Source: Chitinophagaceae bacterium | GTDB taxonomy: Bacteria > Bacteroidota > Bacteroidia > Chitinophagales > Chitinophagaceae | Length of the DNA stretch: 64,000 nt | Direction of reading: 5' to 3' | Assembly (NCBI GenBank): GCA_044220945.1 | Contig: JBGAQC010000008.1 | Location: 117,312-181,311, forward strand | Part shown: piece by piece, positions 1 to 56,113 of the stretch | Position numbering within the stretch: position 1 is the stretch's first letter | Layout of the letters: every line of letters starts with the position of its first letter | The notes under the pieces: model-generated | Told to the model about the DNA's origin: nothing | The model's database searches: none | What the model saw: the letters and a program-made list of their open reading frames with translations, nothing else | Translations under genes and position numbers: made by a program

Positions 1-643
1 TCCAGATATTGCCGTACTGGATATCCAGGATCGGGATCATGCCCGTGATTTGGCCGTCATTTAAAACCGCTGGCTGGTGTTCGAGCATAACCACCGAATC
101 GGCCAGCCTCGGTCCTACTTCCTCAAACCGGATGGTTCCGGAAGCCAGCCGGGCGGCTGTATAGGCATATACGTCCCGTCCATGGAAGGTATATGAGTTC
201 CCGGAAGCCTGACGACGGTTTATTGCTTCATCGATCTGCCGGACTTCCTGGATGCCGAACTGTTCCGCCACCAAAGTGAAACTGCCGTTATCCGGGCCCA
301 CAAAATACTGGCCGTTGCGGGTCTTCAGCACCACCGAATGCCGGTCGGTGCCCACACCCGGGTCCACCACTGAAACAAACACGGTTCCTGCCGGCCAGTA
401 TGGTGCTGTCTGGTCCAGCCGGTACGCCGCCTCCCATATATTATAGGCCGGAATTTCATGTGTCAGGTCGAATAAGCGCAATTCCGGATCAACACCACTG
501 GCCACACCTTTCATGGCGCTTACAGCACCGTCTTTTAATCCGAAATCGGTCTGGAATACAATGGCGGGCTTGTGAACAGGCTGGCGGCAGGATATGCCTA
601 TGCATATAATAAGGAAGAAAACTACAGCAGAACGGAAACGCAT
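1..643 (-). CDS. SAM-dependent chlorinase/fluorinase / SAM hydroxide adenosyltransferase family protein (DUF62), 3' end outside window
   Basis: Not in the ORF track because it runs off the edge. Manual translation from ATG 643: MRFRSAVVFFLIICIGISCRQ...IVFQTDFGLKDGAVSAMKGV...VSVVDPGVGT...YFVGPDNG...YTFHGRDVYA. TDFG, VDPGVG, GPDNG and TFHGRD are DUF62 family motifs. Confidence 0.9.
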   Translation of the reverse strand, partial: MRFRSAVVFFLIICIGISCRQPVHKPAIVFQTDFGLKDGAVSAMKGVASGVDPELRLFDLTHEIPAYNIWEAAYRLDQTAPYWPAGTVFVSVVDPGVGTDRHSVVLKTRNGQYFVGPDNGSFTLVAEQFGIQEVRQIDEAINRRQASGNSYTFHGRDVYAYTAARLASGTIRFEEVGPRLADSVVMLEHQPAVLNDGQITGMIPILDIQYGNIW

Positions 644-6798: not shown

Positions 6799-6875
6799 CG
6801 GGTGGTGGCGCAGCCCGGTAGCGCACTTGTATGGGGTGCAAGGGGTCGCTGGTTCGAATCCAGTCCACCCGACCA
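6799..6875 (+). tRNA. tRNA-Pro(GGG)
   Basis: Acceptor CGGGTGG/CCACCCG, D-stem GCGC/GCGC, anticodon arm CTTGT-ATGGGGT-GCAAG, T-arm GCTGG-TTCGAAT-CCAGT, encoded ACCA. Confidence 0.95.
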
Positions 6876-16330: not shown

Positions 16331-16373
16331 CTCTTATAAAAGCTTGAATATCTGCACAATACTAATGCAATAC

Positions 16374-16402
16374 AAAACGCCGGGATAGATATCCCGGCGT
16401 TT
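16374..16402. terminator. Probable bidirectional terminator between the convergent hypothetical gene and lepA
   Basis: AAACGCCGGGAT-AGAT-ATCCCGGCGTTT. Confidence 0.7.
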
Positions 16403-16553
16403 CAATTTGAAGCAATTAGTAAGGGTTATACCCTGGTTTCGGTAACAGGGTTGAAGCGATGATAAAACAATCAGTTCATACGGACGAGAAATAGACAAGT
16501 TGCCTCGACAGAAAGATGCTTTTATTCAAAAAAAAACGGAAAAATGATACGGA

Positions 16554-27532: not shown

Positions 27533-27631
27533 AACTCATTGATTTAAAAGGTCACACGGATTTTGCCGTATGAGTGATAAAATAGTTTGGAGGCGCAAAA
27601 TTAGGCAAAAATCACTGAAAACCAAAAACAT

Positions 27632-27730
27632 TTACCAATTACCAATGCCCAATTTCCGATGACCAACTACCCTTTTCCCGGTTTTTATCTTCTGGCTACA
27701 GACTACTGGCTACTGGCTACTGACTACTGC
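27632..27730 (-). repeat. Two heptamer arrays downstream of yajQ: TTGGTMA-like x5 (27632-27666) and CAGTAGY-like x5-6 (27692-27730)
   Basis: Plus strand TTACCAA TTACCAA TGCCCAA TTTCCGA TGACCAA and CTGGCTA CAGACTA CTGGCTA CTGGCTA CTGACTA CTGC. Confidence 0.85.
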
Positions 27731-27731
27731 A

Positions 27732-28223
27732 TCACTGGCGCATATTTTCGTATTGGAGCGGAATCCCCAGTCCCCAACCTTTGGAAGCCTGGATCACCGC
27801 CTGTAGGTCGTCGATCTTCTTGCCGGTAACCCGTACGATATCGTCGTTTATGGAAGCCTGGACTTTCAGTCCGCTGTCCTTGATCAGTTTTACGATCTTC
27901 TTGGCATCCTCCATGCGCAGGCCGTTACGGACACTCACCTCCTGTTTCACCAGTTTTCCACTGGGAAAGGAATCTTTGCTGAGGTCGAAGGCTTCGGGAG
28001 AAATACCTTGTTTATGAGCCCGGTTGATCAGCACATCGATCAACTGGCGCATTTTCATATCATCTTCCGTTTCAATATTGAGCTTGAATTCCTTTTTATT
28101 CAGGTCGATCACCACATGGGTGCCCTTGAAATCGAAACGGTTGGTGATTTCCTTGGTGGTTACATTCACGGCATTATCAAGTGCCTGGGCATCCACTTTG
28201 CTGACGATGTCGAAAGAAGGCAT
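27732..28223 (-). CDS. yajQ: YajQ family nucleotide (c-di-GMP)-binding protein
   Basis: MPSFDIVSKVD, NRFDFKG, VRVTGKKIDDLQ and QYENMR. Confidence 0.92.
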   Translation of the reverse strand: MPSFDIVSKVDAQALDNAVNVTTKEITNRFDFKGTHVVIDLNKKEFKLNIETEDDMKMRQLIDVLINRAHKQGISPEAFDLSKDSFPSGKLVKQEVSVRNGLRMEDAKKIVKLIKDSGLKVQASINDDIVRVTGKKIDDLQAVIQASKGWGLGIPLQYENMRQ

Positions 28224-28273
28224 AAGCAATGGGTTTTCCGGTTAAACAGGTGATAAAGATACCGATAAACCGG

Positions 28274-28303
28274 AAAAGAAAAAGGCCCTGTAGAAACAGG
28301 GCC
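28274..28303 (-). terminator. Intrinsic terminator of the candidate small transcript
   Basis: GGCCCTGT-TTCT-ACAGGGCC followed by TTTTTCTTTT on the minus strand. Confidence 0.8.
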
Positions 28304-28369
28304 CGTTAACCAAAACTAACTGCTTATGAGAAAAACTGTATGACTGTATAGATGAGAAAAAAACGTTTT

Positions 28370-28438
28370 TTACATATACGATACCCCGCAGCTGACCAGG
28401 TATACCAGGATTACACATATCAGGATCACTTTTTTCAT
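28370..28438 (-). CDS. Candidate 22-aa peptide MKKVILICVILVYLVSCGVSYM (lipoprotein-signal-like or Ibs-like hydrophobic peptide)
   Basis: Translated base by base from ATG 28438 to TAA 28370: MKK n-region, 13-residue hydrophobic core, LVSC|G lipobox. Confidence 0.6.
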   Translation of the reverse strand: MKKVILICVILVYLVSCGVSYM

Positions 28439-28455
28439 TTTCGCTGCTTTATATA

Positions 28456-28482
28456 TAAGACTCCGGAACGGCAAAAAAGTTA
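28456..28482 (-). promoter_or_regulatory. ECF-sigma-like promoter
   Basis: Minus strand TAAC (28482-28479), 16-nt spacer, AGTCTTA (28462-28456); about 18 nt upstream of the 22-aa ORF. Confidence 0.45.
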
Positions 28483-28567
28483 ACTGGCCTGCTGTTAAAA
28501 TTTTCTAAATACCACAGCCTGCTGGTAACAGGCTGTGGCGGAAGGTTTAATGGTGTCAGGTATAATC

Positions 28568-31024
28568 TTATTGATCTCCTCCCGATTTCACCCGGCTCTG
28601 CTCATCACTGGCTCCACTGGTTCTCCGGTTAGAGGCTGCAGTTTTCCCTTTGCTGAAGCGCCAGGAGAAATTGAGGCTGAACTGGCGACTGTCGCGGCGC
28701 TGGTTGAAAGATGCATCAATATTGCTGTACCGGATCTCCCCATGTATCTTCTGGGAGTACAGGATATCCCGGGCACTGAAGCGAAGGGTACCCTTGCCTT
28801 TCATGATCTGTTTGCTGAGCCCGAGGTTTATCGCCATCACATCATCGATCCGGAACACCCCTTCAATACCCGGTGTGCGGTAGAATCCACCCAGTTCAGC
28901 ACCCCAGGTTTTAGCAAAGCGGAACTGGTTGGTGACATTGAAGAGGGCCGTATTACTTTCCAGCTCTGTGTATTCATTATTGAGTACCCCTTTGTACAGG
29001 TTGTTGAACACATTCATGTACAGGTTGGTATTCCACCATTTGGTGACAGCAAATCCGGCGCTGACCGAGAGCCCGTACTGGCGCTGATTGGCAATATTGA
29101 ATTTGCGGACAACCGTTTCATTTTTATCGATACGCTGTTCCAGAATATCGGAAATGATATCTGTGGTACGGGTATAATTGAGCGTAGTGGTCAGGAAACC
29201 TTTGTAGGTATGACTCAGTTCGATATTGTGGCTGAACTGCGGACTCAGGTTCGGGTTACCCTGTTCAAAAGTGTATTTGTCCAGGAACATGATGAAAGGA
29301 TTCAGGTCTTCATAATCGGGGCGGTTGATCCGGCGGCCATAATTCAGTACAAAACTGTTCTTTTCACTTGCATTATACTGGAGATAGGCAGTCGGGAACA
29401 GCTGGGTATAATTCCGCTTGAACTTATCACCGGTGGTGATCTGGTTACCGGATGCGTTCGTGTTTTCCAGGCGCAGGCCGAACTGGCTGTTCCATTTTTT
29501 GCCCAGCGGGCGGCTGTAGTTTACGTATACTGCATTTACATTTTCCTTATAGAGGAAATGGTTGCTCCGGCCGATATCGCGTACCCGCTGGTTATTCAGC
29601 AGGCTGTCGTAAATGGCGTTATTATCGGTTTCCACATAACTGCTTTTCCAGCCGGCTTCAATACGGGCACCTTTTTCCAGCGGTTTTACAAAGTCCACTT
29701 TGGCTGTATAAATATTGATCGCCTGAGGCAGGTTGCCCAGCAGGGAATCCGAAGGCAGGATGGGTGAACCATCCGGAGAGAAATAATGGTTATAGAGATA
29801 CTGGTCGTTGGCGGAATTATAGTGCAGGTAATCCAGGTCTGCAGTCAACTCCGCTCCGGTGGTATCCAGCATGCGGCGGAAATTCAGGTTGGTGCTGATG
29901 TTCTTCCAGGTGCGGTCGTTGCTGGTTACTGCCTTTGTGGTGCTCTTGGCTATACCTGCAGCATCTGCAATACGCACTGTACTTGCATTGGAGAATGTCA
30001 TTGGTGATGTGAATCCGTTCACAACAAATCCGAAAGTGGTCTTTTTATTCATCGCGTAGTCGAGGCCGATCTTGCCGCTATACGTCTGGCCCAGGTCTTT
30101 CATCCGGGATTCCTGGTCATAGAGGGAAACCACATTCTTGGAAACCCCTTCCAGGAATTTCCGCTGGATATCCAGGTTGTTGAAATTCTGGCGGTAGTTA
30201 TAACTGAAATTGGAGAACAGGTTTACTTTGTTTTTACGATAGTTAAGGTTAACAGACTCACCGGTACGGGCGTAAACACCTTGTGTATATCCCAGTGACA
30301 CACTGCCGCTATACCCCATCTGTTTGTTCTTTTTGGTGCGGATATTAATAACACCGCTGTTACCGGCAGCATCATATTTGGCGGGAGGATTGGTCATGAT
30401 CTCGATACTCTCCAGCTGGTTGGCATTCATGTTTTTCAGCAGTTCAGCCAGATCACTACCCGAAAGATAGGTCGGACGTCCATCGAGATAGACCATCACC
30501 CCTTCTTTCCCTTTCAGGCTGATATTGCCATCTTTGTCTACGGAAATGCCGGGCGATTTTTCCAGGACTTCCAGGGCTGTGGCACCAGCATTCGTGGATG
30601 AGGCTTCTACATTCACGATGGTCCGGTCCATTTTCTGCTCGATCAGTGGCTTCCGGGCTGTAACAGTAACGGCTTTCAGGTCTTTGGCTACTGCCGTAAG
30701 TTTGGTTGTGCCCAGTTCGGCTACCCCACCTGCAGCAAGGGCAAATTCGGGGGTGTAAACGGTACTGAAGCCTACGGATTCGAAGCGGATCCGGTAGGTT
30801 CCGGAAGCGATCTGTTCAAATGACCAGCTGCCGTCACCAGCACTTAAAGTCATTTTAACCAGACTGGAATCCTTGGATTTCAGCAGTGAAACGGAGGCTG
30901 AACCCAAAACGGTCTGGTTCTGGTCGGTCAGTTTTCCGTTGATGCGGGACAGGTTCTGTGCGTGGCTGACGATAGATAAGGTTATGATTATCAGGACTGT
31001 CAGCAGAGTCTTGGCGGTTCTCAT
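28568..31024 (-). CDS. TonB-dependent receptor-like outer-membrane beta-barrel protein
   Basis: Signal peptide, CarboxypepD-like N-domain, plug motif IEIMTNPPAKYDAAGNSGVINI, terminal FSLNFSWRF strand; start ATG 31024. Confidence 0.88.
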   Translation of the reverse strand: MRTAKTLLTVLIIITLSIVSHAQNLSRINGKLTDQNQTVLGSASVSLLKSKDSSLVKMTLSAGDGSWSFEQIASGTYRIRFESVGFSTVYTPEFALAAGGVAELGTTKLTAVAKDLKAVTVTARKPLIEQKMDRTIVNVEASSTNAGATALEVLEKSPGISVDKDGNISLKGKEGVMVYLDGRPTYLSGSDLAELLKNMNANQLESIEIMTNPPAKYDAAGNSGVINIRTKKNKQMGYSGSVSLGYTQGVYARTGESVNLNYRKNKVNLFSNFSYNYRQNFNNLDIQRKFLEGVSKNVVSLYDQESRMKDLGQTYSGKIGLDYAMNKKTTFGFVVNGFTSPMTFSNASTVRIADAAGIAKSTTKAVTSNDRTWKNISTNLNFRRMLDTTGAELTADLDYLHYNSANDQYLYNHYFSPDGSPILPSDSLLGNLPQAINIYTAKVDFVKPLEKGARIEAGWKSSYVETDNNAIYDSLLNNQRVRDIGRSNHFLYKENVNAVYVNYSRPLGKKWNSQFGLRLENTNASGNQITTGDKFKRNYTQLFPTAYLQYNASEKNSFVLNYGRRINRPDYEDLNPFIMFLDKYTFEQGNPNLSPQFSHNIELSHTYKGFLTTTLNYTRTTDIISDILEQRIDKNETVVRKFNIANQRQYGLSVSAGFAVTKWWNTNLYMNVFNNLYKGVLNNEYTELESNTALFNVTNQFRFAKTWGAELGGFYRTPGIEGVFRIDDVMAINLGLSKQIMKGKGTLRFSARDILYSQKIHGEIRYSNIDASFNQRRDSRQFSLNFSWRFSKGKTAASNRRTSGASDEQSRVKSGGDQ

Positions 31025-31298
31025 TTTATTGTTCTTTATTTTAATATATACTTTGTTTTGACGAATACAACTCAAAAGTAAGTACTATTTAATGCATAGT
31101 ACATTGTTTTGTGCCAGACGGCAGGAATCGTTTATAGTTGGATGGAAAGCGGAAAGGAATGGAAACCGGATATGGGACGCAGCCGGAAGAAAAGAGTTAC
31201 AGGCCAATGGCTAGTTAGTGACCAATGGTTGAATAGGCTGTTTAAAGGAAAAAGCCGGGACTGGCCCGGCTTTAAACATAATGAAGCTATAAATATGT

Positions 31299-32588
31299 TC
31301 AGGCAGCGTTATTGCCTTTCTTACGGAAATAGAAGAAGCAGACCAGTCCAATGATGACCAAAGCGCTGGAAATCAATTCAGCTTGTGTAGGCCGGAAGGG
31401 TAATTGATCATAGGTGGTATTCACCCTGATTTTTTCTATGAGGAAGCGCTCAATGCCGTTTACAATCAAATATATGCTGAACAATACGCCGGCCTGGTTG
31501 ATCTTTTTACGGATCAGCCAGAGGAAGAAAAAGAGCACCAGTGCCATCAGGGTTTCATAGAACGGTGTAGGAAATACAGGTACGGGAAGCTGCCGGCAAT
31601 ACTGGCCATCAGTACAGTCCCGTATATCCACTCCATGATTCAGCACATTATGCGGATAAGTATAGGCTACCATCCAGACAGGAAGCCCAAATGGGGCTTT
31701 TACGGCTTTATGCGGGATCTGATCCAGAGGTGTTTCATTGAATTCATTGGTATAAAAGCGGCTGTTCATGGTCAGCTGCAGTTTATAGGTATCCGGATCT
31801 GCTTCAACAATTTTATTATCGGTAGTGATCACATAGGCGCTGTTCAGGATGCCCCAGTCGCCATCTCCGGCCACCTGGCAACCGATACGGCCGATGGCAT
31901 AGGCGATCATAAGCGCAGGTGCTGCCGCATCGCAGAGGTGTTTAAAATTGATCTTATGTTTCCGGGCATACCACCATATTGCGAGGGTGGCACAGATCAG
32001 TCCTCCGTAAAAAGTTAATCCGCTGAATGAAAGCAGCGCTTCCACCGGACTGGCGATAAATTCATTCCAGTTTTCGAGGTTATGAAAGATCTTGGCACCC
32101 AGGAAGCCGAAGAGGGCGGCATATATCACGATATCTCCTACCCTGTCGTGCGGCCAGAGGCGTACCGTACGGGTTTCGGGTTTGGCCAGTTTCCGTTTGT
32201 TCTTTTCCCACCATTTCAATCCGGTGAACAGGATAGCCATGGCGATACCCATAGGGAGGTTCCCTTTGGAAGAGAAGATGAATTCCTGAGGATCCACGGC
32301 TTCACCCTTTCCGGTCAGGAAGAGCCCGATAAACTTATAACCGAGGAGAAATCCAAGTAGGAAGTTGATGGCGAGGTCGGTTATAGAAGCCGGCTTACCG
32401 ACTTCAACCTTTACTTCAGAGAACTGAAGCAGTCCCCCTCTTTCTTTTCGTTGCAGTTCTTTTACCAATATATAGGCAGCCACCAGAAAAGCCAGTGCCA
32501 CAAAGAATCCGAACGAGTTGATGAACCGAAGGCCGGACCATTCCACTCCAAAAAGGTCCCGGAAAGCGTAGTAAAGATTGGGATACAT
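31299..32588 (-). CDS. lgt: Prolipoprotein diacylglyceryl transferase, long form with inserts
   Basis: SGLTFYGGL, GRIGCQVAGDG, PTPFYE and GIERFLIEKIR. Confidence 0.9.
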   Translation of the reverse strand: MYPNLYYAFRDLFGVEWSGLRFINSFGFFVALAFLVAAYILVKELQRKERGGLLQFSEVKVEVGKPASITDLAINFLLGFLLGYKFIGLFLTGKGEAVDPQEFIFSSKGNLPMGIAMAILFTGLKWWEKNKRKLAKPETRTVRLWPHDRVGDIVIYAALFGFLGAKIFHNLENWNEFIASPVEALLSFSGLTFYGGLICATLAIWWYARKHKINFKHLCDAAAPALMIAYAIGRIGCQVAGDGDWGILNSAYVITTDNKIVEADPDTYKLQLTMNSRFYTNEFNETPLDQIPHKAVKAPFGLPVWMVAYTYPHNVLNHGVDIRDCTDGQYCRQLPVPVFPTPFYETLMALVLFFFLWLIRKKINQAGVLFSIYLIVNGIERFLIEKIRVNTTYDQLPFRPTQAELISSALVIIGLVCFFYFRKKGNNAA

Positions 32589-56038: not shown

Positions 56039-56113
56039 GGTGGATGATGGGATTCGAACCCACGACCCTCAGAACCACAATCTGATGCTCTAACCAGCTG
56101 AGCTACAACCACC
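56039..56113 (-). tRNA. tRNA-His(GTG)
   Basis: G-1 plus GTGGTTG.../CATCCAC-C73, anticodon arm TCAGA-TTGTGGT-TCTGA, TTCGAAT T-loop; CCA not encoded. Confidence 0.95.

Follow-up and report, generated by a model that had tools for sequence, protein, structure and literature searches.

A conserved two-part unit beside a TonB-dependent receptor gene of a Chitinophagaceae bacterium: a candidate dual-function small RNA with a 22-codon lipobox reading frame and a module of a large Bacteroidota RNA family

In a 64,000-nucleotide stretch of DNA from a Chitinophagaceae bacterium (assembly GCA_044220945.1, contig JBGAQC010000008.1, positions 117,312 to 181,311; the whole stretch is called the window below, and all positions are window coordinates), the gap between a TonB-dependent receptor gene and yajQ holds a short unit that is read throughout on the minus strand. 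By comparing related loci we showed that this unit has two conserved parts: a 22-codon open reading frame (ORF) bearing the marks of protein-level selection and, 3' of it, an RNA module common to ORF-less relatives that have promoters of their own. With moderate confidence, we take the unit to be an independently transcribed dual-function small RNA of about 175 nt, which would be both the mRNA of a micro-lipoprotein and the carrier of a base-pairing module, and which would be induced by envelope or uptake stress. The unit and the hairpin that precedes it consist of the following features.

28538..28512, minus strand: terminator hairpin of the receptor gene, CCACAGCCTG-TTACCAG-CAGGCTGTGG, a perfect 10-bp inverted repeat read directly
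28493..28500, minus strand: upstream element TTTTAACA, invariant in the ORF-bearing units (alignment A3)
28484..28479, minus strand: -35-like box GTTAAC of an extracytoplasmic function (ECF)-type promoter, with a 16-nt spacer to the -10-like box
28451..28462, minus strand: -10-like box AGTC (28462..28459), then TTATATAT; predicted transcription start at about 28454..28452
28370..28438, minus strand: 22-codon ORF, ATG at 28438 and stop codon TAA at 28372..28370, predicted product MKKVILICVILVYLVSCGVSYM
after the ORF, minus strand: U-rich 3' region of 65 nt
28341..28363, minus strand: family motif, first and degenerate copy, TTTTTTTCTCATCTATACAGTCA, resembling the CTCAnATAAAGCAGTCA repeat that stands before the core in sigma-54-type members
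28307..28335, minus strand: family core and putative seed, TTTTT CTCATAAGCAGTTAGTTTTGG TTA, identified by the exact 21-mer and by covariance model R1
28274..28304, minus strand: intrinsic terminator from the terminator scan, stem-loop GGGCCCTGT-TTCT-ACAGGGCC at 28304..28284, then a T run
28275..28453, minus strand: whole predicted RNA, about 175-180 nt, its boundaries placed from the promoter and terminator positions

A preliminary description of this locus, made from its sequence, had listed the receptor hairpin, promoter-like boxes of the form TAAC-N16-AGTC, the ORF, a U-rich 3' region and a terminator, and we recovered every one of them at the same positions. It noted correctly that the 3' region is U-rich, but it missed that this region belongs to an RNA family and is the most conserved part of the unit. 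The stem-loop at 28304..28284 was the sole terminator-like site called in 27600..29000. The receptor hairpin separates the receptor mRNA from the small-RNA unit, and an equivalent hairpin is also present in L201 and L202 (L numbers denote the loci compared).

Copies of the ORF were gathered from the YajQ loci of reference genomes, from metagenome loci and from the surroundings of TonB receptor orthologues. A homologous ORF was found in two of the 80 reference-genome YajQ loci (L005, from the complete genome OZ257130.1, and L024), the metagenome loci gave three further copies (one in L082 and a tandem pair in L137), and the closest receptor orthologues, at 83, 71, 64 and 63% identity, each had the unit just downstream (L201, L202, L203/L204 and L205). 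Ten distinct ORF sequences were thus available (window, L005, L024, L082, two from L137, L201, L202, L203 and L205). All ten were exactly 22 codons long, with the stop at a constant site and TAA, TAG and TGA all in use. Variable alignment columns fell on codon positions 1, 2 and 3 in the numbers 14, 4 and 19, and the residues M1, K2, K3, L6, I7, Y13, L14, C17, G18, S20 and Y21 were invariant, with Ser20 written as AGT, TCA, TCC, TCG or TCT and Leu6 with four different codons. Over the first five copies, synonymous differences averaged 0.67 per site (pS), which is near saturation, against 0.23 for non-synonymous ones (pN), and in the five copies checked stop codons interrupted both other frames. 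When the 1.36 Mb of window and loci was searched in six frames for the mini-lipobox ORF pattern, the only matches were the window ORF and its homologues. The start position is fixed by L137, where a stop codon lies two codons 5' of the ATG. The same locus holds the second tandem ORF unit at 549-400 on the minus strand, MKKIVLIAILLCYLVGCGISYL; its 3' part, TTTTTTCATAAGCAGTTAGTTTTTGG, is compact, and the sequence upstream of it differs.

The preliminary description had allowed that the ORF might be the truncated start of a longer lipoprotein gene. In none of the ten copies does it lead into a longer gene, and all ten keep both lipobox and stop. The conserved frame, length, stop and codon pattern argue that the ORF is neither a chance occurrence nor the stump of such a gene. 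It is clear from these comparisons that the ORF is real and conserved and that its peptide is under protein-level selection, from which we infer that it is translated.

A purely non-coding small RNA, in which the ORF is untranslated and is conserved through RNA structure, would account for part of what we saw on folding: the consensus fold pairs ORF codons 13-18, at the 3' end of the ORF, with the core, and the region of the start codon is paired with UUUUUCUCAU when the window RNA is folded to minimum energy. The fold z-score was -1.5, and synonymous codon choice is not biased toward pairing. The same explanation leaves aside the codon-periodic substitutions (14/4/19 variable columns), the switch of Ser20 between the TCN and AGY codon families, a pN far under pS, and a frame, length and stop that are kept in all ten copies while stops interrupt the other frames in the five copies checked; we consider it very improbable. 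A possible role for the ORF 3' end as an 'anti-seed' that masks the core in cis was also considered and rejected, as no consistent synonymous bias was seen (p = 0.17, 0.23, 0.99, 0.008 and 0.80).

The 3' module, UUUUCUCAUAAGCAGUUAGUUUUGG, is unpaired, and lies directly 5' of a covarying terminator; no other part of the unit is as conserved or as widespread. The exact 21-mer of its core is CTCATAAGCAGTTAGTTTTGG, and all family counts given here are among the matches listed. The preliminary description had proposed a search for conserved occurrences; beside the ten ORF copies, this 21-mer was present in at least 120 metagenome contigs. It was invariant across 118 aligned members, the preceding TTTT was near-invariant (92-98%), and in the aligned members a hairpin and then a T run followed 3' of the core. 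In the family hairpin 95.9% of cells were paired, all nine pairs covaried and 152 cells were changed on both sides, which none of 500 shuffles reached. The window, L005, L020 and L024 are almost identical across the segment TTTTCTCATAAGCAGTTAGTTTTGG and the hairpin, while the degenerate first motif copy at 28341..28363 is weakly conserved across the ORF-bearing units. Covariance model R1 gave 83.2 bits (E 2.4e-18) for the window copy, the only one that it found in the window. The best of the other weak R1 matches in the window, 16364..16437, proved on reading to be a terminator alone, and these matches were rejected.

Most family members, among the matches listed, consist of the module as the whole RNA, behind a sigma-54-type or ECF-type promoter; more than 110 have no ORF and have promoters of their own. 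A sigma-54-type promoter, TGGCA-N6-TTGC, was found in 52 of 127 members at 33-67 nt 5' of the core, and in 36 of these 52 the sequence TTAAC stands exactly 22 nt 5' of TGGCA (for example L156 3370-3510, L120 and L109). The element TTTTAACA is common to the ORF-bearing units and the sigma-54-type members, and TTAAC is kept in the ECF-like promoters too, so that the window promoter has the sigma-54-type layout with TTAAC kept and the GG and GC boxes gone. An ECF-like promoter also occurs in the ORF-less members L020 and L122; their gene order is lgt, RNA, yajQ, and the receptor is missing. The commonest context, at 38 metagenome loci among the matches listed (for example L104, L158 and L182), is downstream of prfA, the gene of release factor 1, where the RNAs face a VanZ-like gene, gcvH, or a pair of anti-sigma and ECF sigma genes. 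In Flavobacterium psychrophilum sigma-54 drives groESL, dnaK, lon and htpG (PMC9723704), and by these targets the family promoters point to protein-quality or envelope stress.

Rfam 15 had no family at the RNA: none appeared there when the whole window was searched at the gathering thresholds, none when the limit at the locus was relaxed to an E of 10, and none at the small RNA in 16 family loci; the best score at the locus was PrrF with 21.9 bits against a gathering threshold of 90. A literature search by sequence and by topic gave no description of the RNA family or of a lipobox-coding small RNA, and the family appears to be undescribed. Two other RNAs were noticed on family contigs. In L174 a group II intron (Rfam RF02001 and RF01998; 2583-2885, plus strand) starts about 80 nt after tandem family RNAs and may have inserted behind their terminator, and L088 carries at 183-257 (plus strand) an unrelated Flavo-1 RNA (RF01705, 49.3 bits).

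The contexts of the module bear on whether the transcript is more than a tiny mRNA, with the peptide as its sole product and the module acting in cis in termination, stability or protein binding. In L081, L103, L116, L187, L085 and L100 the module lies directly behind the stop codons of ordinary genes. In many other Chitinophagaceae weaker and shorter R1 relatives, TTTTCTCATGTG plus terminator, stand right after the receptor stop codon; examples of this short version, (A)GTTTTCTCATGTG plus terminator, are the following.

L001 3852-3930: short version after the receptor stop codon
L006 3903-3979: short version after the receptor stop codon
L013 2650-2724: short version after the receptor stop codon
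L016 1875-1950: short version after the receptor stop codon
L137 1005-960, minus strand: short version after the receptor stop codon

Such placements (L001, L006, L013 and others) are what a cis element would give, as are the very long core and the failure of the target searches described below to find a site. A pure cis element leaves unexplained the stand-alone ORF-less members of about 90-115 nt with their own sigma-54-type promoter, which make up roughly half of the family, and the tandem family copies in L151, L160 and L174 are as in families of trans-acting small RNAs. We regard the mRNA-only explanation as rather unlikely. The short version behind the receptor may have arisen from the 3' untranslated region as a small RNA and may be ancestral to the unit.

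In the ORF-bearing units the promoter elements always come in the order TTTTAACA, 7-8 nt, GT[TAG]AAC, 16-17 nt, [CA]GTC, (T)TATAT, with conserved blocks and variable spacers. The -35-like box fits GT[TAG]AAC in the window, L005, L024, L082 and L137 and reads GTTAAC in L201 and L202 and TTTAAC in L203 and L205; in alignment A3 [CA]GTC and ATAT are invariant, 16 or 17 nt from AAC. The claim of the preliminary description that the unit is discrete and has an ECF-type promoter agrees with this, as AAC-N16/17-[CA]GTC is conserved in all units examined. No sigma-70-type site was called at the unit by the promoter scan, and by eye the Bacteroidetes sigma-A box TAnnTTTG was missing there. A CGT -10 box has been read as ECF-type in F. 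psychrophilum (PMC9723704). With AAC in the -35 and CGT in the -10 as the ECF pattern, the unit promoter would be classed as ECF-like.

The receptor gene appears to be under similar control. The neighbouring features are these.

32588..31299, minus strand: lgt, upstream of the TonB receptor gene
31176..31200, minus strand: ECF-type promoter of the receptor, GTAAC-N16-CGTC, conserved in orthologues
31024..28568, minus strand: coding region of the TonB-dependent receptor gene, OMP_b-brl_3 type
28223..27732, minus strand: DUF520/YajQ gene (yajQ), which together with rpmE (yajQ-rpmE) flanks the unit

A motif TGTAAC-N16/17-CGTC lies 159-180 nt 5' of the receptor ATG in all 12 orthologues (including the window, L201-L210, L024 and L137), which implies, as far as a conserved motif can, a long 5' leader and ECF control of the receptor. 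As the receptor and the unit have similar ECF-type motifs, the locus would hold two adjoining ECF-type units; this suggests co-induction, and the two probably share one regulon. The Lgt protein encoded upstream has 429 residues, and its LGT domain covers residues 145-420 alone, leaving an N-terminal extension of about 140 residues; Lgt orthologues of 431 residues were called in L203 and L205. In L207-L210 (about 1-970), where receptor orthologues are without the ORF unit, a LytTR-type histidine kinase and a response regulator precede the receptor in place of lgt. The only Rfam matches within the window at gathering thresholds were two tRNA genes, at 6799-6872 (plus strand) and 56039-56112 (minus strand).

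The predicted peptide has the layout of a minimal prolipoprotein. In all ten copies an n-region MKK is followed by 12-13 hydrophobic residues and a lipobox L-[VI]-[SG]-C, and all ten fit the lipobox definition [LVI][ASTVI][GAS]C (PMC7296081). The window peptide has the lipobox LVSC with five residues after the Cys. The tail CG[VIL]SY[ML] is kept throughout, and within it CG.SY is invariant, whereas the hydrophobic stretch varies. Lgt accepts short synthetic prolipoprotein N-termini in vitro, and a tail of five residues is thus compatible with processing. A chain of 22 residues would be released before it exits the ribosome tunnel, so that insertion into the membrane would be post-translational. 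Judging from this layout, processing by Lgt and LspA to a lipid-anchored hexapeptide would be the most likely fate of the peptide. Searches of NCBIfam and Pfam with the peptide gave sub-threshold, signal-peptide-like matches alone.

Entericidins EcnA and EcnB, Atu8019 and Lpp likewise have an n-region, a hydrophobic stretch and a lipobox [LVI][ASTVI][GAS]C, but their mature parts are tens of residues long, against the predicted six in the window, and there is no sequence similarity. The preliminary description had offered three readings, a micro-lipopeptide signal, an Ibs-like type I toxin and a dual-function RNA. The last of these fits best because the RNA family of the 3' half is large and its members mostly have no ORF. 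Read as a type I toxin, the hydrophobic peptide would harm the membrane unless restrained by an antisense RNA, as in Ibs/Sib. Its length and hydrophobicity do resemble those of IbsA-E (18-19 aa), and L137 holds tandem copies in one locus. The opposite strand, judged by sequence patterns alone, has no sigma-A-type TAnnTTTG by eye and no sigma-70-type promoter or terminator by scan, so that no antisense partner is evident; the window has a single copy, at a fixed syntenic site beside the receptor; the conserved lipobox and invariant C-terminal tail are not toxin features; and the peptide had no similarity to IbsA-E and no match to toxin families in NCBIfam or Pfam. The toxin reading is thus without support, and we consider it extremely unlikely.

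Conservation of the tail would fit an exported signalling peptide, whose N-terminus would serve export alone and whose released or lipidated C-terminal hexapeptide would be the cue, between cells or inside the envelope, as in Phr or pheromone peptides: the invariant part is the C-terminal CG.SY tail, and the hydrophobic stretch varies. There is also a weak likeness to the Phr N-terminus, for which the NCBIfam model Phr_nterm scored 14 bits. The cut-off of 25 places the peptide outside the Phr-type precursors, and no linked receptor, processing or export genes were found. This explanation, which overlaps with the dual-function reading and differs from it in the role of the peptide alone, seems unlikely to us.

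Metatranscriptomes and presumed RNA libraries hold contigs over the core, one of them at a depth of 48, which suggests that family members are expressed; the runs that contain part of the ORF had low depth and a library type that was not stated. One metatranscriptome contig crosses the terminator into yajQ. Such read-through would be expected if the ORF were a leader peptide, whose translation sets read-through of the terminator into a downstream gene (yajQ-rpmE here, a second receptor elsewhere). In every copy the ORF and terminator do lie upstream of a gene on the same strand, and TnaC-type leader peptides are similar in length to the 22-codon ORF. An attenuator is nevertheless very unlikely: there is no antiterminator in the consensus fold, where the ORF 3' end pairs with the core and not with a terminator arm; codon choice is not tuned to the pairing of ORF and core; the peptide has no run of regulatory codons; the downstream gene varies among copies; and the identical terminator module ends RNAs that face convergent genes and have no downstream gene on the same strand.

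With regard to targets, conservation within the module runs deepest in the stretch UUUUCUCAU. Its complement, AUGAGAAAA, reads as a start codon and then Arg-Lys codons, so that the stretch could occlude the start regions of target mRNAs; occlusion of the start codon is the simplest model. The stretch taken as the putative base-pairing region toward start regions is UUUUCUCAUAAGCAGUUAG. Scanning the window for duplexes turned up no convincing match. The RNA could pair in the window with the start regions of the receptor and of yajQ at -18 and -18.8 kcal/mol, respectively. The start of yajQ, (C)TGCTTATG, at 28223-28235 on the minus strand of the window and at about 3990-4003 in L001, is complementary to the core segment CAUAAGCA(G); this complementarity is not kept in L005, L020, L024 and L203 and is probably a coincidence.

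Several of our results weigh against a dual-function RNA encoding a lipopeptide. The core, at 21-25 nt, is much longer than a usual seed and on that account may bind a protein instead, and complements of it in the window and the 1.36 Mb of loci were found at the RNA genes themselves alone; nor was the pairing with the receptor and yajQ start regions conserved in other loci. The contigs from RNA libraries either run on into yajQ or span no more than the core that relatives have in common, and do not resolve the window copy. The distribution of the ORF is patchy: it was not found in the closest YajQ relatives (L001-L004), and there was none beside receptor orthologues at 60-62% identity (L206-L210). 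At the promoter, the -10-like box is AGTC, not CGTC, in the window, L082, L137a, L201 and L202. For the peptide, the Pfam model LPAM_1 was the top match in only two of the six copies scanned, at 12.8 and 13.4 bits against a cut-off of 20, and gave no match in the other four; this model is very short, so that a sub-threshold score is weak evidence either way. Finally, we know of no lipoprotein with just five residues after the Cys.

By its manner of working, as far as this analogy goes, the unit would come closest to SgrS/SgrT, RNAIII/delta-haemolysin, SR1/SR1P, Spot 42/SpfP and AzuCR, dual-function small RNAs in which a short transcript also joins a small ORF to a separate module and the peptide is small and hydrophobic. 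It has no sequence relationship with them, and differs in that its peptide combines a full lipobox with a tail of just five residues beyond the Cys and in that its module lies 3' of the ORF, is common to non-coding relatives and forms a new family. In promoter type it is comparable to MicA, RybB and MicL, which sigmaE drives in enterobacteria: the points in common are an ECF-like promoter, shortness, an ending at an intrinsic terminator and perhaps a role in limiting the synthesis of exported proteins. The link to these RNAs drawn in the preliminary description stands as an analogy alone: we found no homology and no Rfam match, many relatives of the window RNA are of sigma-54 type, and MicL is cut from a longer transcript whereas the window RNA carries an ORF of its own. 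By sequence the unit is a member of neither group. The family also recalls Qrr of Vibrio, which is sigma-54-dependent and multicopy with a conserved core, in its sigma-54-type promoters, its several or tandem copies and its unvarying run of over 20 nt just 5' of the terminator. Qrr belongs to another phylum and has another sequence, and the window copy has an ORF and lacks the GG and GC boxes of sigma-54 promoters. To our knowledge the host phylum has neither Hfq nor ProQ; characterised small RNAs are very few in Bacteroidota, and none with a dual function is known to us.

In the dual-function reading that we favour, the ECF-type promoter (TTTTAACA, GTTAAC-N16-AGTC) would start transcription near 28453, to judge from its conserved boxes. 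Translation of the 5' half would give the 22-residue peptide, which would be inserted post-translationally into the inner membrane, receive diacylglyceryl from Lgt at Cys17 and be cleaved by LspA, leaving the hexapeptide CG(V/I/L)SY(M/L) anchored in the envelope by its lipid. The 3' half, the family module, would most likely act in trans by base pairing and cover the start regions of its targets. In its most far-reaching form this reading joins an acylated hexapeptide, which would be the smallest lipoprotein known to be made by ribosomes and would act as an envelope signal, to a 3' domain that silences mRNAs by covering their start codons; taken as a whole we hold this form to be speculative and improbable. 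If the lipopeptide is a signal, its invariant C-terminus of Ser, Tyr and a hydrophobic residue may be compared with a PDZ-domain ligand, and it could then, for example, feed back on the protease and anti-sigma cascade behind the ECF promoter, or act on the co-regulated TonB receptor.

The RNA family is abundant in metagenomes from soil, rhizosphere, freshwater and sludge, and its sigma-54-type and ECF-type promoters tie it to stress regulons of the phylum. ORFs as short as the one described here are missed by routine gene annotation; if the peptide is processed, this strongly selected 22-codon ORF would lower the size limit for lipoproteins. Should the most far-reaching form of the reading be true, the unit would combine the coding of a lipopeptide with RNA regulation in one small RNA, in a phylum that lacks Hfq, and would belong to a large, as yet undescribed family of stress small RNAs under sigma-54 and ECF control.

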